Source: Candidatus Woesearchaeota archaeon
GTDB lineage: Archaea > Nanobdellota > Nanobdellia > Woesearchaeales > ARS49
DNA length: 64,000 nucleotides
NCBI GenBank assembly: GCA_038891615.1
Contig: JAWADY010000003.1
Span: 32,001 to 96,000 of the forward strand
Direction: 5' to 3'
The notes under the pieces were generated by a model. It was not told where the DNA came from and did no database searches. It saw only the letters and a list, made by a program, of their open reading frames with translations. Both the position numbers and the translations under genes were made by a program. How positions within the stretch are numbered: position 1 is the stretch's first letter; every line of letters starts with the position of its first letter. Below are positions 19,975-64,000 of the stretch, one piece after another.

Positions 19975-20069
19975 CGGGCCTGCGAGGATTTGAACCCCGG
20001 ATCTTCTGCTCCCTTTCGTCATTCAGACGATAGAAGGCAGCCGCTCTATCCAGACTGAGCTACAGGCCC
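19975..20069 (-). tRNA. tRNA-Arg(TCT) with 20-nt intron at 37/38 (20011-20030)
   Basis: GGGCCTG/CAGGCCC acceptor stem, TTCAAAT T-loop, CT-TCT-A anticodon loop interrupted by a relaxed BHB intron. Confidence 0.9.
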
Positions 20070-20146: not shown

Positions 20147-20219
20147 GCGGAGGTAGCCAAGCGGCTAAGGCGGCCGCCTGCAGAGCGGCTTATCAAGGGT
20201 TCGAGTCCCTTCCTCCGCT
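20147..20219 (+). tRNA. tRNA-Cys(GCA)
   Basis: GCGGAGG/CCTCCGC acceptor, GCCGC-CTGCAGA-GCGGC anticodon arm, U73 discriminator. Confidence 0.95.
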
Positions 20220-20652: not shown

Positions 20653-20675
20653 TTATATCACCTCAGCTTTTAATT

Positions 20676-22524: not shown

Positions 22525-24705
22525 ATGTACGAACTGATAATCAGCGAAAAACCTGCAGCCGCAGAGAAGATTGCACTTGCGCTCGCAGACAAAAATGTCA
22601 AGAAGGAAAGCCGAAACGGCGTGCCTTATTTCATTTTGACACGCAAAGGACGAAAGATTGTTGTGGGTTGTGCTGCCGGGCATCTATTCGCGCTTGCTGA
22701 AAAGGTAAAAAGCAAGAGCTTGAGCTACCCTGTTTTTGACATAGAATGGTTACCTGTATTTCTTGTTGACAAATCTGCGAGGTTTACAAAGGCATATTAT
22801 GACGCGCTTAGGGCGCTTGCAAAAGGAGCAGAGATTTTCACAGTTGCAACAGACTATGACGTTGAAGGGGAGGTTATTGGATTGAATATCATAAGATATA
22901 TCTGCAACAGAAATGACGCTCGTAGGATGAAATTTTCTACGCTAACAAAGCCCGACCTTGTTGCTGCCTATGAAAGAGTGGAACCGCATCTTAACTGGGG
23001 AGATGCTGAGGCTGGTGAAACGAGGCATTTTCTTGATTATTACTATGGTATAAACATCTCGCGGGCGCTCATGTCTGCAATAAAATCTGCAGGAATGTTC
23101 AAGATACTTAGCACAGGCAGGGTTCAGGGTCCTGCACTTAAGATAGTTGTAGACAGAGAAAGAGAAATTGCAGCCTTCAAGCCAAAGCCTTACTGGGAGA
23201 TAGAGCTCGTCTGTTCTGTTGGTAAGTCAAGCATTTTTTCTGCTTGGCACATCAAAGACCCATTCTGGGAAGAGGCTGTTGCCCAAGAGGTCATGAAAAA
23301 GATAAAAGGCGCAAAAGAGGGGGTTGTCGTCGCTGTTGAAAAAAAGGACTTTGAGCACAAGCCTCCAACTCCTCTTGACCTAACAACACTTCAGACCGAG
23401 GCTCATAGGTGTTTTGGTATAAGCCCAAAATCAACGCTTGATATTGCCCAAGAGCTTTACATTGGGGGTTATATTTCCTATCCTAGAACTTCTTCGCAAA
23501 AGCTGCCTCAATCTATTGGCTATGAAAGAATAATTCGCGAACTCAGCAAGCAAAAAAACTATGCCGCAGCTGCTTCTGAGCTTCTAAAGTCCAAGAAGCT
23601 TTCACCTTGTGAAGGAATAAAAACAGACCCTGCTCACCCTGCAATCTATCCAACGGGGATAGCTCCAAAAGGGCTTGAGCCAAGGCATCAAAAAATTTAT
23701 GATTTGATTGTGAAGCGCTTTTTGGCAACTTTTGGAAAGCCTGCAAAGCGCCAAACCATTCTTCTTAAGCTTGATGTGAAGGGCGAACAATTTGTCGCAC
23801 GTGGAACAAGGACTGTCGATGAAGGCTGGTATCCACTTTATGCTCCTTACATAAAGCTGGAGGAAACAGACCTTCCTGCTTTTAATATAGGGGATTCGGT
23901 GAAAATAAAAAAGACTACACTACATGCAAAGCAAACAGCCCCTCCAAAAAGATACAATCCAAGCTCGCTTGTGCGTGAGCTTGAACGCAGGGGGCTTGGA
24001 ACAAAGGCTACGCGTTCTGAAATTGTTGAAACACTTTATAAAAGAAACTATATCAAAGGTGAGCAAATCAGGGCAACAGAGCTTGGAATGCACGCAATAG
24101 AAATTCTGGAGCGTTATTGCCCAAAAATAATCGACGAACAAATGACAAGACATTTTGAGCAGGATATGGATTCAATAAGCCGTGGAATAAAGAAAAAAGA
24201 GGAAGTCCTTGAGGAGGCAAGGACTTTCCTTGTTGGACTTCTGGAGGAATTCAGATCAAAAGAAAGGAAGATTGGAGAAGGTTTACTGGAGCATTTTATG
24301 GAAACGGAAGCTGGGCTGTTAAATGTTGGTATGTGCCCAGTTTGTAAGAAGGGAAGTCTTACAATTAGAAAGGGCAAATATGGTCGATTCATTGCCTGTG
24401 ATCGTTATCCTGACTGCAGAACAACTTTCAAGCTCCCGCCAACAGGAATGGTCGAGGTCTCAAAAGAGGTTTGTGGTGTTTGCGGTTATCCAATGATAAA
24501 GATTATAAAAAAAGGGAAAAAACCTGCTGAACTTTGCATAAACCTTGACTGCCCATCCAAGGCTGCTGTGGGAAAGTTCGCTGAAGGACATAGCTGTCCT
24601 TCATGCAAAGTTGGGAAGCTTGTCATAAGAAAATCAATTTATGGGAGTTTTATTGCTTGTACAAACTATCCAAAATGCAGATATGTCCAAAGGGGGCAAA
24701 AATGA
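22525..24705 (+). CDS. topA: DNA topoisomerase I (type IA) with C-terminal Zn ribbons
   Basis: ISEKP, ATDYDVEGE, STGRVQ, ISYPRT, GLGTKATR, repeated CxxC. Confidence 0.96.
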   Translation: MYELIISEKPAAAEKIALALADKNVKKESRNGVPYFILTRKGRKIVVGCAAGHLFALAEKVKSKSLSYPVFDIEWLPVFLVDKSARFTKAYYDALRALAKGAEIFTVATDYDVEGEVIGLNIIRYICNRNDARRMKFSTLTKPDLVAAYERVEPHLNWGDAEAGETRHFLDYYYGINISRALMSAIKSAGMFKILSTGRVQGPALKIVVDREREIAAFKPKPYWEIELVCSVGKSSIFSAWHIKDPFWEEAVAQEVMKKIKGAKEGVVVAVEKKDFEHKPPTPLDLTTLQTEAHRCFGISPKSTLDIAQELYIGGYISYPRTSSQKLPQSIGYERIIRELSKQKNYAAAASELLKSKKLSPCEGIKTDPAHPAIYPTGIAPKGLEPRHQKIYDLIVKRFLATFGKPAKRQTILLKLDVKGEQFVARGTRTVDEGWYPLYAPYIKLEETDLPAFNIGDSVKIKKTTLHAKQTAPPKRYNPSSLVRELERRGLGTKATRSEIVETLYKRNYIKGEQIRATELGMHAIEILERYCPKIIDEQMTRHFEQDMDSISRGIKKKEEVLEEARTFLVGLLEEFRSKERKIGEGLLEHFMETEAGLLNVGMCPVCKKGSLTIRKGKYGRFIACDRYPDCRTTFKLPPTGMVEVSKEVCGVCGYPMIKIIKKGKKPAELCINLDCPSKAAVGKFAEGHSCPSCKVGKLVIRKSIYGSFIACTNYPKCRYVQRGQK

Positions 24706-26528
24706 GGCCGCTTGTGCTCCTGCTTTTCTTTTTATTGCAATTTATCATACTCACAAATCCAGCTCATGCGCTTTTGAAACAAGCCAGCATACCTGTTCTT
24801 GCACTGACTGAAAAAGATGGAAAGACCGTTGGTACGGTGGCAGAGCTACATCTTGAAGTGCGTGATGGCAGTGAGCGGGTTTTTCTCGAGACAATACCTT
24901 TAACAAAAATTTCAACCCAGATATCTATGCGCTTTGCACAGCAAGTGGTTTGCAGGGAGCTGGATTTGGACTGTTCTCGTTACGATTTTATTTTTACTCT
25001 TAAAGGCCCCTCAGGAATTGTTGGAGGACCAAGCGCAGGAGCTGCTGGGGCGGTGCTTATTGCCGCGACGCTGAAGGACATGAAACTTGATAACCGCACT
25101 GCAATAACAGGTACAATAAATTCTGGTGGAATAATAGGCCCAGTCGGGGGGCTGAGTGAGAAGATATTTGCAGCCTCAAAAGCAGGACTTAGCCGCGTGC
25201 TTATTCCAAAGGGCGAGGGCTTGTCAAAGGATGAAAATGAAACAAAAGACCTTTTTGAACTTGGCCGGAAGTTGAATGTTTCTGTCATTGAAGTCGCAAC
25301 ACTAGCAGAAGCACTATCTTATTTTACAGGGCTTAAGCCAGAGAGACCAGCAGAGCAGCTTGTCATTCATCCAGCTTATCTGGAGCTTATGTCTCAAATA
25401 GCCTTTGAAACCTGCGAAAGAGCAGAAGAGCTTTCCGACATTGCAAAGAGGCTTGCAACTTCAAACAAAACTGCTTTGTTAGACTCTTCAATCAATTTTA
25501 CAACGCAGGCAAAAGAGCTCTTGAAAGAAAAAGCTTACTACAGCGCCGCTTCCTACTGCTTCAGGGCAAACACAAATTACAAAACAATAATTCTAGGGGA
25601 GCTTGGACTGGCTCAGTTTTTCCAAAGAATGCGCGAAGCCCGTTCTGAAATTGAAAAGCTTGGGGGCGAGCTTAAAGAAAGGAATGTAACAACACTTGTT
25701 GGTCTTCAGGCTTTCTTCCTTGCCAAGGAAAGGCTTGTGGAAGCGTTTGAGAGTCTTGACGAGATTGAAAAAAGACTATCAAATGGTACTCCAGAACCTT
25801 CTGAGCTTGCATCACTGCTGGCATATATCGAAGAGCGGATATATTCTGCCATCACTTGGTCAAGGTTTTTTCAGCTTGAGGATAGAAAAGTGATTGAAGT
25901 TGAGCCACAAAGCATTGCCAAATCTTGCCAATCAAAGATGGCTGAAGCCGAAGAGCGTGAAGCGTATGCCAGTTCTCTTTTTGTTCTTCCACTCTCTACT
26001 GTGCACAAGGATATCGAAAAGGCAGCAAATTATGCTGCCAACGGAGAGTATGAGCTTTGCATCTTCGCTGCCAGCAAGGCAAAGGCAGGTGCGGACATGC
26101 TCATCAGCACATCAGGTATCTCGCTTGAGCGTGCACAAGAGTTCATCGAGCAAAAACTTGAGATGGTTAGAGGAATGCTTGTAAAGGCTCAAAGGCGTGG
26201 CTTTATTCCAATAATCAGTTATAGCTATTATGATTATGCTCAAACTCTCAAGAGCGTTGATATTGGAACCGCGCTTCTTTTCGCAGAGCTTGCGCAGGAA
26301 CTATCAGTTCTTGACAGCTATTTTGAGAAAAGGGCAGCAGTACCAGAACCAATACAATACCCGCCTATTTTGCCACCGTCGTCCATGCCGAAGCTTGAAG
26401 AACGTGCTAAAGGATTCTTTCTTGGGTTTGCACTTGGATTAGTTCTTGCAGGCTTTGTATGGCTTTTGAACAAGCACTTGGCTGCAAAAGGCTTCAGGAA
26501 AAAGAAGAAACGAACTTTACATCATTAA
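24702..26528 (+). CDS. Exported, membrane-anchored Lon-like (S16) Ser-Lys protease without ATPase (COG1750-like)
   Basis: Signal peptide, GPSAG, TGTI...GPVGGLSEK, helical region, C-terminal TM plus basic tail. Confidence 0.85.
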   Translation: MRPLVLLLFFLLQFIILTNPAHALLKQASIPVLALTEKDGKTVGTVAELHLEVRDGSERVFLETIPLTKISTQISMRFAQQVVCRELDLDCSRYDFIFTLKGPSGIVGGPSAGAAGAVLIAATLKDMKLDNRTAITGTINSGGIIGPVGGLSEKIFAASKAGLSRVLIPKGEGLSKDENETKDLFELGRKLNVSVIEVATLAEALSYFTGLKPERPAEQLVIHPAYLELMSQIAFETCERAEELSDIAKRLATSNKTALLDSSINFTTQAKELLKEKAYYSAASYCFRANTNYKTIILGELGLAQFFQRMREARSEIEKLGGELKERNVTTLVGLQAFFLAKERLVEAFESLDEIEKRLSNGTPEPSELASLLAYIEERIYSAITWSRFFQLEDRKVIEVEPQSIAKSCQSKMAEAEEREAYASSLFVLPLSTVHKDIEKAANYAANGEYELCIFAASKAKAGADMLISTSGISLERAQEFIEQKLEMVRGMLVKAQRRGFIPIISYSYYDYAQTLKSVDIGTALLFAELAQELSVLDSYFEKRAAVPEPIQYPPILPPSSMPKLEERAKGFFLGFALGLVLAGFVWLLNKHLAAKGFRKKKKRTLHH

Positions 26529-26598
26529 AAACCCGAGCAGACCCGGTTTGGGCCGAGCCTGCGCGGGAAAAAGAGGTGATCTTAAAATTTCAATTGTT
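26527..26598 (-). ncRNA. Candidate ~70-nt small RNA with anti-SD sequence and GC-rich 3' hairpin
   Basis: BRE/TATA CGAAAGATTTATATA upstream, no ORF, GATCACCTC, hairpin 26567-26532, T5 tail. Confidence 0.45.
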
Positions 26599-26644
26599 AC
26601 TACTAGTATATAACAATTAATATATAAATCTTTCGGTTATATTT

Positions 26645-26658
26645 CTACTATTCAGTAG
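26645..26658. promoter_or_regulatory. Palindromic operator CTACT-N4-AGTAG
   Basis: Perfect arms; 16 nt upstream of minus-strand TATA; related sites at 37708-37721 and 34843-34856. Confidence 0.45.
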
Positions 26659-26729
26659 TTATATTTTCTTGAAAAGCTTTCAAAATACCTGTACAAAGGC
26701 TTATTAATCCTTTCATCCGCTTTTTTTAA

Positions 26730-27164
26730 ATGGAAAAATGGTTTGTTTTTTTGCTACTTTTATTTTTGGTGAGCTGCGCTCCTGCAAAGCAACCTGCTAT
26801 AGTGACAAAGGTAATAGACGGCGATACTGTGACAATTCAAGGGGGTCAAAATGTCAGGCTTCTTGGCATTAATGCTCCTGAAAAAGGAGAGAGGGGATAT
26901 TCCGAGGCTCGAGACTTCTTAATCATGCATCTTTTAATGAAAGAAGTTGTCCTTGAACGGGACAAAGATAATAGGGACAAATATGGCAGGTTGTTGCGAT
27001 ATGTTTGGTATAACGGCTTGCTTGTAAACAAAGAAATTGTCAGGCAAGGGCTTGCTGTTGCTCAGATTTATCCGCCAAACACAAAATATGCCAGCGCGAT
27101 TGTAGCAGCAGAAGAAGAAGCAATGTTGCAAAAAAGAGGACTTTGGAAAGCAGAATCAGACTGA
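26730..27164 (+). CDS. Thermonuclease (SNase) family lipoprotein
   Basis: Lipobox LVSC, VIDGDT, RLLGINAPE, DKYGRLLRY, RGLW. Confidence 0.94.
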   Translation: MEKWFVFLLLLFLVSCAPAKQPAIVTKVIDGDTVTIQGGQNVRLLGINAPEKGERGYSEARDFLIMHLLMKEVVLERDKDNRDKYGRLLRYVWYNGLLVNKEIVRQGLAVAQIYPPNTKYASAIVAAEEEAMLQKRGLWKAESD

Positions 27165-30581: not shown

Positions 30582-30654
30582 GGGGACGTCGTCTAACCTG
30601 GTAGGGCATCCGGCTCCAGACCGGAAGATTGGGGTTCAAATCCTCACGTCCCCA
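30582..30654 (+). tRNA. tRNA-Trp(CCA), intronless
   Basis: GGGGACG/CGTCCCC acceptor, TCCGG-CTCCAGA-CCGGA anticodon arm, TTCAAAT. Confidence 0.94.
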
Positions 30655-63778: not shown

Positions 63779-63878
63779 GAAGGCTGTTAAAGGTAATCTC
63801 TTTATAAAAATTTTGCTACTTCAGAATAGCATCTTGTTATAGAAAAATTTATAAGGAAAAGCGGATGAAAAATTAATA

Positions 63879-63987
63879 GGACGGCCATAGGGGCTGGGTT
63901 CTACCCGTTCCCATTCGAACACGGCAGTCAAACCAGCCTCCGTAGCTGAGTGTACTGCGTTACGCGGGAAATCAGCTAAGCTGTCCA
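63879..63987 (+). rRNA. rrf: 5S rRNA
   Basis: GGACGGC/GCTGTCC terminal helix, CCCGTTCCCATTCGAACACGGCAGTCAA, GTACTG, GGGAA; own TATA at 63848. Confidence 0.9.
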
Positions 63988-64000
63988 CTTTTACATCTTT

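Follow-up and report, generated by a model that had tools for sequence, protein, structure and literature searches.

A predicted small RNA conserved across Woesearchaeales carries an anti-Shine-Dalgarno seed complementary to the 5' untranslated region of a small acidic protein gene

We describe here a locus in a 64,000-nt stretch of the genome of a Candidatus Woesearchaeota archaeon (assembly GCA_038891615.1, contig JAWADY010000003.1, positions 32,001 to 96,000; hereafter the window, in whose coordinates positions are given). A 200-bp spacer between two plus-strand genes, encoding a Lon-like and a staphylococcal-nuclease-like protein, holds on its minus strand a promoter, an anti-Shine-Dalgarno (anti-SD) sequence, a GC-rich hairpin and a U-tail. 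A preliminary description of this DNA had proposed a small RNA (sRNA) gene made of these parts, with a transcription factor B recognition element (BRE) and TATA box followed by no open reading frame (ORF). Every element is present as described, and downstream of the promoter the minus strand contains no ORF of at least 30 amino acids except frames antisense to the Lon-like gene. The genome analyzed comprises 661 kb in five contigs (G000), and its 16S rRNA gene lies on a contig other than that of the window. The features of the locus are the following (TSS, transcription start site).

24603-26528, plus strand: gene for a membrane protein with a C-terminal Lon (S16) proteolytic domain (Pfam Lon_C, E 5.6e-12), convergent with the sRNA.
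26527-26531, minus strand: U5 tail, the likely 3' end; a terminator-like site that overlaps the TAA stop codon of the convergent Lon-like gene by 2 nt.
26532-26567, minus strand: GC hairpin CCCG-C-GCAGGCUCGG / CCCAAA / CCGGGUCUGC-U-CGGG, defined by fold and covariation; the 5' arm is CCCGCGCAGG.
26568-26580, minus strand: seed AUCACCUCUUUUU, an anti-SD-like 8-mer plus U5; the G at 26581 lengthens the identity with 16S rRNA to GAUCACCUC.
26527-26600, minus strand: predicted sRNA transcript of about 70-74 nt, deduced from promoter geometry and the U-tail.
26596-26604, minus strand: start-site region AGTAGTAAC, 24-32 nt past the first T of the TATA box, archaeal starts being expected about 25-30 nt after that box; predicted TSS at about 26597-26601.
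26618-26592, minus strand: imperfect palindrome AATTGTTA...TAACAATT, read from the sequence.
26621-26636, minus strand: BRE/TATA promoter CCGAAAG-A-TTTATATA, with the BRE CCGAAAG at 26636-26630 and the TATA box TTTATATA at 26628-26621.
26645-26658, minus strand: upstream palindrome CTACTGAATAGTAG, 8 nt 5' of the BRE, a candidate regulator-binding or upstream promoter element.
26730-27164, plus strand: gene for a staphylococcal-nuclease-like protein (Pfam SNase, E 4.8e-21), transcribed away from the sRNA promoter region.

An A/U-rich stretch lies between AGTAGTAAC and the seed on the minus strand. The RNA read from this strand folds at -26.3 kcal/mol (z -3.73; none of 200 shuffles equals it), whereas the plus-strand fold is weaker, at -21.3 kcal/mol (z -1.61; 14 of 200 shuffles are as good). 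From fetched loci we gathered 31 units, chosen by a motif regular expression, of which 28 were aligned (alignment A1, including four units from unpublished genomes, G009a/b and G024a/b). On this alignment, 12 pairs are predicted by RNAalifold, and compensatory changes are seen at 9 of these. In a 13-pair structure, 9 of the 13 pairs are altered on both sides; 96.1% of the cells are paired versus 82.4% in shuffles, cells with double changes number 49 versus 12.2, and the covariation score is 0.537 versus 0.235, none of 500 shuffles reaching any of these values. Controls in which the structure was slid gave covariation scores of at most 0.16. The stem interior is thus variable yet paired, and within the family the hairpin 5' arm is near-invariant while the 3' arm varies. 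By hand count about 23 of the 31 loops are UNCG or GNRA tetraloops, in the sRNA orientation only, and a tail of U3-U8 follows the hairpin in 31 of 31 units. We assign the RNA to the minus strand of the window because the tetraloops and the frequent G-U pairs, which would be A-C on the other strand, fit that strand; the earlier claim that the G-U pairs work on the minus strand only is borne out by the stems of the aligned units.

The 16S rRNA of the host ends in ...GGAUCACCUCCU, and the 9-mer GAUCACCUC is common to this tail and the sRNA, in agreement with the claim that the anti-SD core equals the 16S 3' end. Within a single genome this match is not beyond chance, GAUCACCUC occurring twice (in the 16S gene and at the sRNA locus) where we estimate about three to four occurrences from base composition; the feature exceeds chance because it is conserved across genomes and the stem beside it covaries. 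The 13-mer seed is identical in 28 of 28 aligned units, which had been picked by regular expression. Class-level units, whose hairpin arm differs (CCCCAGG...), have it exactly in 19 of 20 cases and with a single mismatch in the other, although counts of seed invariance among model matches are partly circular, the covariance model itself containing the seed, which detracts from the interpretation given below. The anti-SD motif, whose fate in homologues had been posed beforehand as decisive, is thus conserved. The invariant part is longer than the anti-SD and comprises 13 nt including U5, plus the hairpin 5' arm. As had been proposed, the seed is predicted to be single-stranded, with an unpaired probability of 0.79 in the window RNA; over 45 predicted transcripts it is 0.8-1.0 in the short forms. 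Many long forms carry a 5' hairpin with GGGGUG(G), which in tandem forms often pairs the first seed while the second stays free.

The unit was also recovered by a DNA search free of the motif, in which a 401-nt spacer query was compared with 40 relatives: the best-conserved segment was query 209-246, corresponding to seed and 5' arm, in 26 of the 40 genomes, and frequently 22-25 nt were 100% identical across genera. A covariance model (R1) gives one strong match in the own genome (63.7 bits, E 7.9e-14; G000:C3:58528-58580, that is, window 26528-26580); the next best, at 22.5 bits, is the complement of the candidate target site discussed below. At the family level, the model matches 71 of 77 genomes, among them all 51 of high quality, in 27 of the 29 genera, with one to three units that usually share one locus. 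In an order sample of more than 130 families, 136 of 151 genomes are positive (107 of 116 high-quality). A class sample yielded 55 of 151, with 17 of 18 from the own order and 37 of 132 from other orders; in this sample the families f151 (17/17) and f139 (4/4) are all positive, and f138 (0/9), f145 (0/7) and f147 (0/7) are all negative. These counts take in the unpublished genomes G009, G024, G041, G086-G088, G091, G187, G196 and G207, and no claim depends on them alone. Relatives that bear the element have been labelled by their depositors as Woesearchaeota, Nanoarchaeia or Nanobdellota. Two contigs filed as bacterial (L225 and L229, from a Patescibacteria bin and a Binatia bin) hold complete sRNA units, one with an archaeal promoter, and probably represent mis-binned Woesearchaeota DNA. 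Six further bacterial matches to the 20-mer lie in unrelated contexts and lack the hairpin; three of them share a similar flank that resembles a conserved gene.

The RNA does not correspond to a catalogued family. Rfam 15 at gathering thresholds detected in the whole window only a 5S rRNA and three tRNAs, all elsewhere, and the best match in a permissive scan of 26300-26900 was CyaR, with 18.3 bits against a gathering score of 47 and an E value of 1.4. A full-text literature search found no description of the RNA family. Guide RNAs of the C/D type carry a C box (RUGAUGA) and a D box (CUGA) with a K-turn, and H/ACA RNAs an ACA box 3' of a pocketed hairpin; no snoRNA-type family was found at E values up to 10, and such boxes are absent on inspection of the transcript. 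We rejected a repeat or mobile element, the unit being single copy in its own genome, as well as a small ORF across the unit on either strand, for which the frames are not conserved between genomes (by hand reading only) and tandem spacing leaves no room for a gene.

Conservation extends to the promoter. The sequence CGAAAGnTTTAWATA is found upstream of the unit in nearly all family loci inspected and in class-level loci. A palindrome of the form (T)ACTACT-N4-AGTAGT(A) occupies the same position in family relatives and in other orders of the class; this type occurs at only three places in the own genome. At the predicted start, ACTAT..AGTAGTAAC is conserved in family loci, and the own genome has only two copies of AGTAGTAAC, each with the same spacing to a TATA box. 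The preliminary description had placed the imperfect palindrome AATTGTTA...TAACAATT at the start site; it does exist there, but the conserved features are the ACTACT-N4-AGTAGT-type palindrome and AGTAGTAAC. In class-level loci from other orders the seed begins about 24 nt past the TATA box and would thus form the 5' end of the RNA. Units are single or tandem among relatives. Taken together, the conserved promoter, start motif, hairpin and U-tail support, by comparative evidence, the proposal of an independent, promoter-driven sRNA gene on the minus strand.

The other AGTAGTAAC site of the own genome belongs to a gene assigned to TrmB by Pfam (G000:C2:26524-27356), where it lies at the same distance from the TATA box as in the sRNA gene. 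Genome G289 has another sRNA-like unit, composed of GUCACCUCUUUUUU and a long hairpin, immediately after the stop codon of a gene whose C-terminal domain resembles, by eye, that of TrmB-family regulators (L271, G289:C1:207886-207905). The sRNA may therefore be linked to a TrmB-type regulator. We rejected AGTAGTAAC as the mark of a TrmB regulon, as the extra promoters with this motif in relatives precede genes for signal-peptide proteins and not TrmB homologues: at L166, L171 (G011) and L173 (G009), a GTTACT-like upstream element and CGAAAGnTTTAAATA are combined with AGTAGTAAC at the start site. This suggests that the shared architecture marks strong promoters rather than a dedicated sRNA operator. 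The G289 unit also accounts for a 19-nt complement in that genome, which we rejected as a case of target covariation, the complement being this second unit on the opposite strand after the TrmB-like gene.

The exact complement of the seed, AAAAAGAGGTGAT, is present in 73 of 77 family genomes, against a total of four matches for a reversed control. Outside sRNA genes, exact 13-mer sites number about 50-55 in the 77 genomes by hand count, fewer than one per genome. Of 47 such sites that we inspected, 37 are followed within 0-15 nt by an ORF of at least 24 amino acids (26 of these ORFs having at most 82 amino acids), and they are therefore working Shine-Dalgarno (SD) regions. Apart from the sRNA gene, the own genome has a single perfect site, which is the SD of a 45-amino-acid acidic protein (G000:C3:107688-107848, outside the window). 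Its 5' untranslated region (UTR) has a perfect match of 13-14 nt plus GGG after a 2-nt bulge, and the duplex has a predicted energy of -23.8 kcal/mol. The same protein family is encoded at 13-mer sites in four other genera.

We examined the 5' UTRs of this gene at 30 loci of the family, four of them from unpublished genomes (L144, L147, L152, L156). About 35 nt after their own TATA box, 22 of the 30 begin with GCGCGG(G)-A-rich-GAGGUG(AU), the reverse complement of AUCACCUCUUUUUCCCGCGC in the sRNA; in these, GCGCGG(G) or GCGGG stands directly 5' of the A-run. The longest matches are a perfect 20-mer (GCGCGGGAAAAAGAGGUGAU) in G077 and 19 nt in G056. The strongest duplex in the whole locus of about 3 kb, both strands considered, falls in the small-protein 5' UTR in 24 of the 30 loci, at -21 to -39 kcal/mol, against an own-genome duplex background with a mean of -8.9, an sd of 3.7 and a 0.1-percentile of -23.7 kcal/mol. 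We attribute the invariance of the hairpin 5' arm, in the face of a changing 3' arm, to the inclusion of this arm in the longer match to the target UTR.

Outside the family but within the order, the seed complement was sought at 29 loci, one of them unpublished (L281), identified with a 6-row protein profile (A2) that probably misses distant homologues. It is present with up to two mismatches in 10 of the 29 UTR zones (11 sites in the remaining 167 kb), with up to one mismatch in 6 (none in the remaining 167 kb) and exactly in 2 (none in the remaining 167 kb). These sites usually lie 3-5 nt ahead of the start codon. It is common for a UTR to have a 5'-proximal site in addition to the one at the true SD. 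The genera with two-site UTRs (g2, g10, g5, g21) mostly have tandem units and those with one site (g17, g6, g1) have one unit, g19 being an exception; this is a tendency read by eye. In genus g2 (L132-L139), the UTR of about 110 nt is structured, with a 5' site GCGCGGG..GGUGAU, a covarying hairpin with UUCG or GCAA loops and then the true SD; either of the two SD-like sites might pair with an internal AUCAC(G)CUC. The g2 UTR could be a cis switch on which the sRNA acts.

The candidate target encodes a conserved acidic protein of 24-45 amino acids with the motif ..[IV]S[YF]......N(K/R)xL(G/D)xF(F/L/I).. and then an acidic tail. A search with profile A2, which is independent of the UTR, detected homologues in 55 of 77 family genomes at E values of at most 1, 25 of them below 1e-3. 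Pfam, NCBIfam and a protein atlas hold no family or match for this protein, apart from weak matches of two of six members to DNA_pol_alpha_N (E 0.005). The PCNA-interacting peptide (PIP) box has the consensus QxxLxxF(F/Y/L) and binds PCNA; in the alignments, the (N/S)xxLxxF(F/L/I) of the small protein, followed by acidic residues, resembles it. Predicted in complex with the PCNA of its own genome, the protein scores 0.50 versus 0.00 for the best of three controls (with a pLDDT of at least 45 for the partner and a contact agreement of at least 54%), which lends weak support to an interaction, given that 7 of 80 solved complexes, and both of the mismatched pairs that passed, likewise passed at 0.60 or lower, and that the result may reflect likeness to solved PIP-PCNA complexes. 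The gene context is DNA repair and dNTP metabolism. In the own genome the gene lies directly upstream of that for the endonuclease NucS (L141:1657-2394); in G117 it lies between genes for a dUTPase and a radical-SAM/4Fe-4S (NrdG-like) protein (L280:1043-2264), and at many order-level loci a dUTPase-type ..GFGSTG C terminus is, by eye, encoded just upstream. The acidic mini-protein may act on PCNA.

At the level of sequence, these comparisons establish a unit that is conserved, structured, strand-specific and preceded by a promoter of its own, an invariant seed predicted to be accessible, and conserved complementarity of that seed with the SD or 5' UTR in genes of one mini-protein family, as well as with some other small genes. 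We consider it fairly probable that the locus is a gene for a trans-acting regulatory RNA of about 70 nt, which belongs to an uncatalogued family distributed across Woesearchaeales and some sister orders and controls the translation of the small protein. The strong, probably regulated BRE/TATA promoter would produce an RNA that ends at the U-tail and consists of an unstructured 5' part ending in the seed AUCACCUCUUUUU, the covarying GC hairpin and the U-tail, which would both end and stabilize the RNA. The seed, extended into the hairpin 5' arm (CCCGCGC), would pair with the SD region AAAAAGAGGUGAU of particular mRNAs, the foremost candidate being the 5' UTR of the PIP-like protein gene. Such a pairing of 13-20 nt could out-compete the 8-nt pairing between 16S rRNA and SD, so that translation would be controlled and most likely repressed; in two-site UTRs, the sRNA may instead re-fold the ribosome-binding site. 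The U5 beside the hairpin is a plausible binding site for the Sm-like protein of the host, and an LSM protein is encoded in the genome (81.4 bits). More speculatively, an ancient riboregulator, near-universal in Woesearchaeales and related DPANN archaea, by copying the anti-SD tail, might gate a PCNA-binding mini-protein through the 13-20-nt pairing and thereby couple the state of translation, or a signal sensed at the palindromic sRNA promoter, to DNA replication in these organisms of minimal genome, with transcripts of genus g16 as sponges that would complete a circuit of sRNA, sponge and target; we regard this extended scheme as doubtful.

Several observations weigh against regulation of the small protein by the sRNA. 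The own target UTR lacks the GCGCGGG extension, and its -23.8 kcal/mol barely passes the -23.7 cut and ranks below the top 25 windows, the 25th of which is at -25.8 kcal/mol. The coding regions of both own FtsZ paralogues (G000:C1:110963-111000 and G000:C3:125912-125949, minus strand) pair far better, reaching -38.0 and -35.3 kcal/mol; the coding DNA ..GCGCGGGAGAAGGAGGUGG.. is the strongest non-self complement in the genome, and both paralogues read AGEGGGTG in the tubulin signature. We rejected FtsZ as a conserved target: in the 71 of 76 other family genomes that matched the pattern, the codons read AGMGGG or other residues (mostly M at the position in question, and Q or L in one genus) and third positions are free. 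The FtsZ complementarity is confined to this lineage and may reflect either coincidence or lineage-specific targeting. Small genes with high expression are moreover expected to have a strong A-rich SD, and the 13-mer also stands ahead of many small genes that are unrelated. Because five rows of the protein profile, all but the own one, were picked from 13-mer sites, only the members detected by homology count as independent support. Common descent links the 22 UTRs, which makes the 7-nt extension nearer to one evolutionary observation than to 22, and 6 of the 30 family loci and 19 of the 29 order-level loci are without a good site. Pairing with the CCCGCGC arm would require the base of a stable hairpin to open, and the internal U5 is itself an archaeal termination signal that could truncate the RNA. 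A search for public RNA runs containing the locus listed none, and the contigs of one metatranscriptome gave no coverage of 26400-26760, which is uninformative.

Among other explanations, the preliminary description had favored a global translational switch, in which the RNA mimics the 16S tail, titrates GAGGUGAU-type SDs and shifts translation to leaderless or weak-SD mRNAs. The identity of GAUCACCUC with the own 16S tail agrees with this, as do the use of GAGGTGAT as a working SD in the host genome (9 of 23 occurrences precede ORFs of at least 50 amino acids), the hint of high expression from the likeness of the promoter to those of signal-peptide genes in relatives, and the many different small genes that follow a 13-mer complement. 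The invariance, however, exceeds the anti-SD and reaches through U5 into the hairpin arm; after CACCUC, the sRNA reads UUUUU, whereas the 16S tail reads CCU. Exact 13-mer sites are rare and concentrated on one gene family, in whose UTR the full complement recurs with an extra 7-nt match, and a competitor with 8 nt of pairing would need an abundance near that of ribosomes. We therefore prefer a specific target and regard the global switch as unlikely. The phasin-like gene put forward earlier as a target fares no better: GAGGTGAT is present before it at 20657-20664 (minus strand), with an ATG 4 nt further on and a 94-amino-acid ORF, but only the 8-nt SD matches, and the duplex reaches -17.4 versus -23.8 kcal/mol for the small-protein UTR. 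The 9-nt identity with 16S rRNA could also be read as that of a protein decoy or scaffold, which would imitate the 3' end of 16S rRNA or its precursor, or offer a U-rich site by a hairpin, and so sequester or deliver an Sm-like protein or a factor for 16S 3'-end processing or initiation, with no pairing to mRNA; factors that bind the 16S tail are possible partners. Its U-rich context suits this idea, the 16S tail being likewise followed by a U-rich spacer in the host rRNA operon, U5 being flanked by structure and an LSM gene being present, and the internal GGGGUG(G) that pairs with the seed in many long forms would mimic an SD:anti-SD helix. A decoy leaves unexplained both the conserved 20-nt complementarity to one mRNA 5' UTR and the coincidence of the seed complement with the SD of that gene, and we find it quite unlikely.

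Two further explanations dispense with a trans-acting RNA. The 20-bp motif, in opposite orientations at the sRNA locus and the small-protein promoter, might be the site of one transcription factor, with complementarity as a by-product. Its position about 35 nt after the TATA box of the small-protein gene, near the start site, is typical of an operator, and the promoters at both loci are well conserved. Yet in sRNA genes its distance from the predicted start is very variable (8-89 nt in the 45 transcripts), it is followed by RNA-level features, namely a covarying stem with G-U pairs and a U-tail, and the other copy of the complement forms, in many genomes, a functional SD 3-7 nt before ATG, all of which makes a DNA-level element very unlikely. 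The hairpin might otherwise serve the convergent Lon-like gene as a transcription terminator, an insulator or a 3'-end structure, the promoter-like sequence belonging to the intergenic region of the nuclease gene. The hairpin does abut the protease stop codon, and the Lon-like gene adjoins the unit in 23 of 25 related loci. It is convergent in 22 of these and co-directional in one (G059, L058); the orientation is thus not fixed, and on the protease strand, where the fold is also weaker, the hairpin is followed by AAAAAGAGG, that is, A5 and no U-tract, which is why we do not take it for the terminator of this gene. A terminator-like site is called on the minus strand alone, which is also the only strand that suits the G-U pairs and tetraloops, and well outside the family the promoter, start region and seed still occur together as a conserved unit. 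The earlier concern that the hairpin is merely the 3' end of the protease mRNA can thus be set aside, and we give this explanation almost no credence.

The reading that we prefer, a trans-acting sRNA with a specific mRNA partner, has an established archaeal precedent in sRNA154 and sRNA41 of Methanosarcina mazei, which mask ribosome-binding sites and, according to the passages on them in PMC5867862, are likewise intergenic and promoter-driven, with an exposed sequence complementary to the ribosome-binding site of the target and a proposed block of initiation. The RNA described here has no relation to them in sequence or structure, Rfam having found nothing, and its seed lies in a 5' single strand that continues into the terminator arm instead of in a loop. 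It also differs from the M. mazei sRNAs in being near-identical over an order-level radiation, often tandem and hosted by a DPANN archaeon with a 0.66-Mb genome. Bacterial sRNAs of Hfq-type architecture and C/U-rich anti-SD sRNAs, such as RoxS/RsaE of Firmicutes and the CcsR "cuckoo" RNAs of Alphaproteobacteria, share the arrangement of seed, U-rich stretch, GC terminator hairpin and poly-U tail, together with a pyrimidine-rich seed complementary to SDs and the occurrence of sibling or tandem copies. In contrast to these, the present RNA has an archaeal promoter and host, shows no homology and copies the 16S tail AUCACCUC rather than a CCCC/CCUCC motif in its seed, and any chaperone would be an Sm-like archaeal protein. 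With the 16S tail itself it shares the 9 nt GAUCACCUC and the ability to pair with GAGGUGAUC-type SDs, but it is a separate predicted transcript of 70 nt, in which UUUUU in place of CCU allows 13-20-nt matches to A-rich extended SDs that are impossible for the ribosome. By the features that can be computed, namely an independent unit and a conserved accessible seed facing a conserved target ribosome-binding site, it would represent a new RNA family of a known kind, that of sRNAs masking ribosome-binding sites.

Very few archaeal sRNAs have a known target and, to our knowledge, none has been described for DPANN archaea. The conservation at a single locus across the order (more than 130 sampled families), even in genomes of 0.5-0.9 Mb, argues for an important function. 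The family would supply a covariance model for the annotation of Woesearchaeales genomes and would offer a first handle on posttranscriptional control in uncultured ultra-small archaea, and it comes with a 20-nt pairing register and a concrete candidate partner among mRNAs. Attention is also drawn to an uncharacterized acidic mini-protein encoded beside NucS or dUTPase genes.

Other transcripts and genes also carry sites for the seed. In genus g16 (L073, L078 and L098, from G049, G054 and G052), a TATA-preceded stretch without an ORF contains two sites complementary to the seed (AAAGAGGUG-CGCG-AAAAAGAGGUGAU) and, after them, a CCCC(UUCG/GCAA)GGGG hairpin; it is convergent with the gene for the small PIP-like protein and reads into its antisense. 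This stretch might act on the sRNA as a sponge or antisense RNA. A second family, of very acidic proteins of about 40 amino acids that end in ..FM(Q/L)G(Y/A)L, uses the exact 13-mer as SD (L063 in G007, L108 in G005, L201 in G272). In G272, one such gene is convergent with an ORF-less seed-complementary transcript whose extension matches the hairpin arm of that genome. The site concerned, CUGGGAAAAGAGGUGAU, which matches the arm CCCAGGG, was set aside as a single case in which the strand is only presumed.

Elsewhere in the window lie three tRNA genes and an isolated 5S rRNA gene, at 19975-20069 (minus strand) and at 20147-20219, 30582-30654 and 63877-63989 (all plus strand). One of the tRNA genes spans 95 nt against a model of 71 positions and probably contains an intron.

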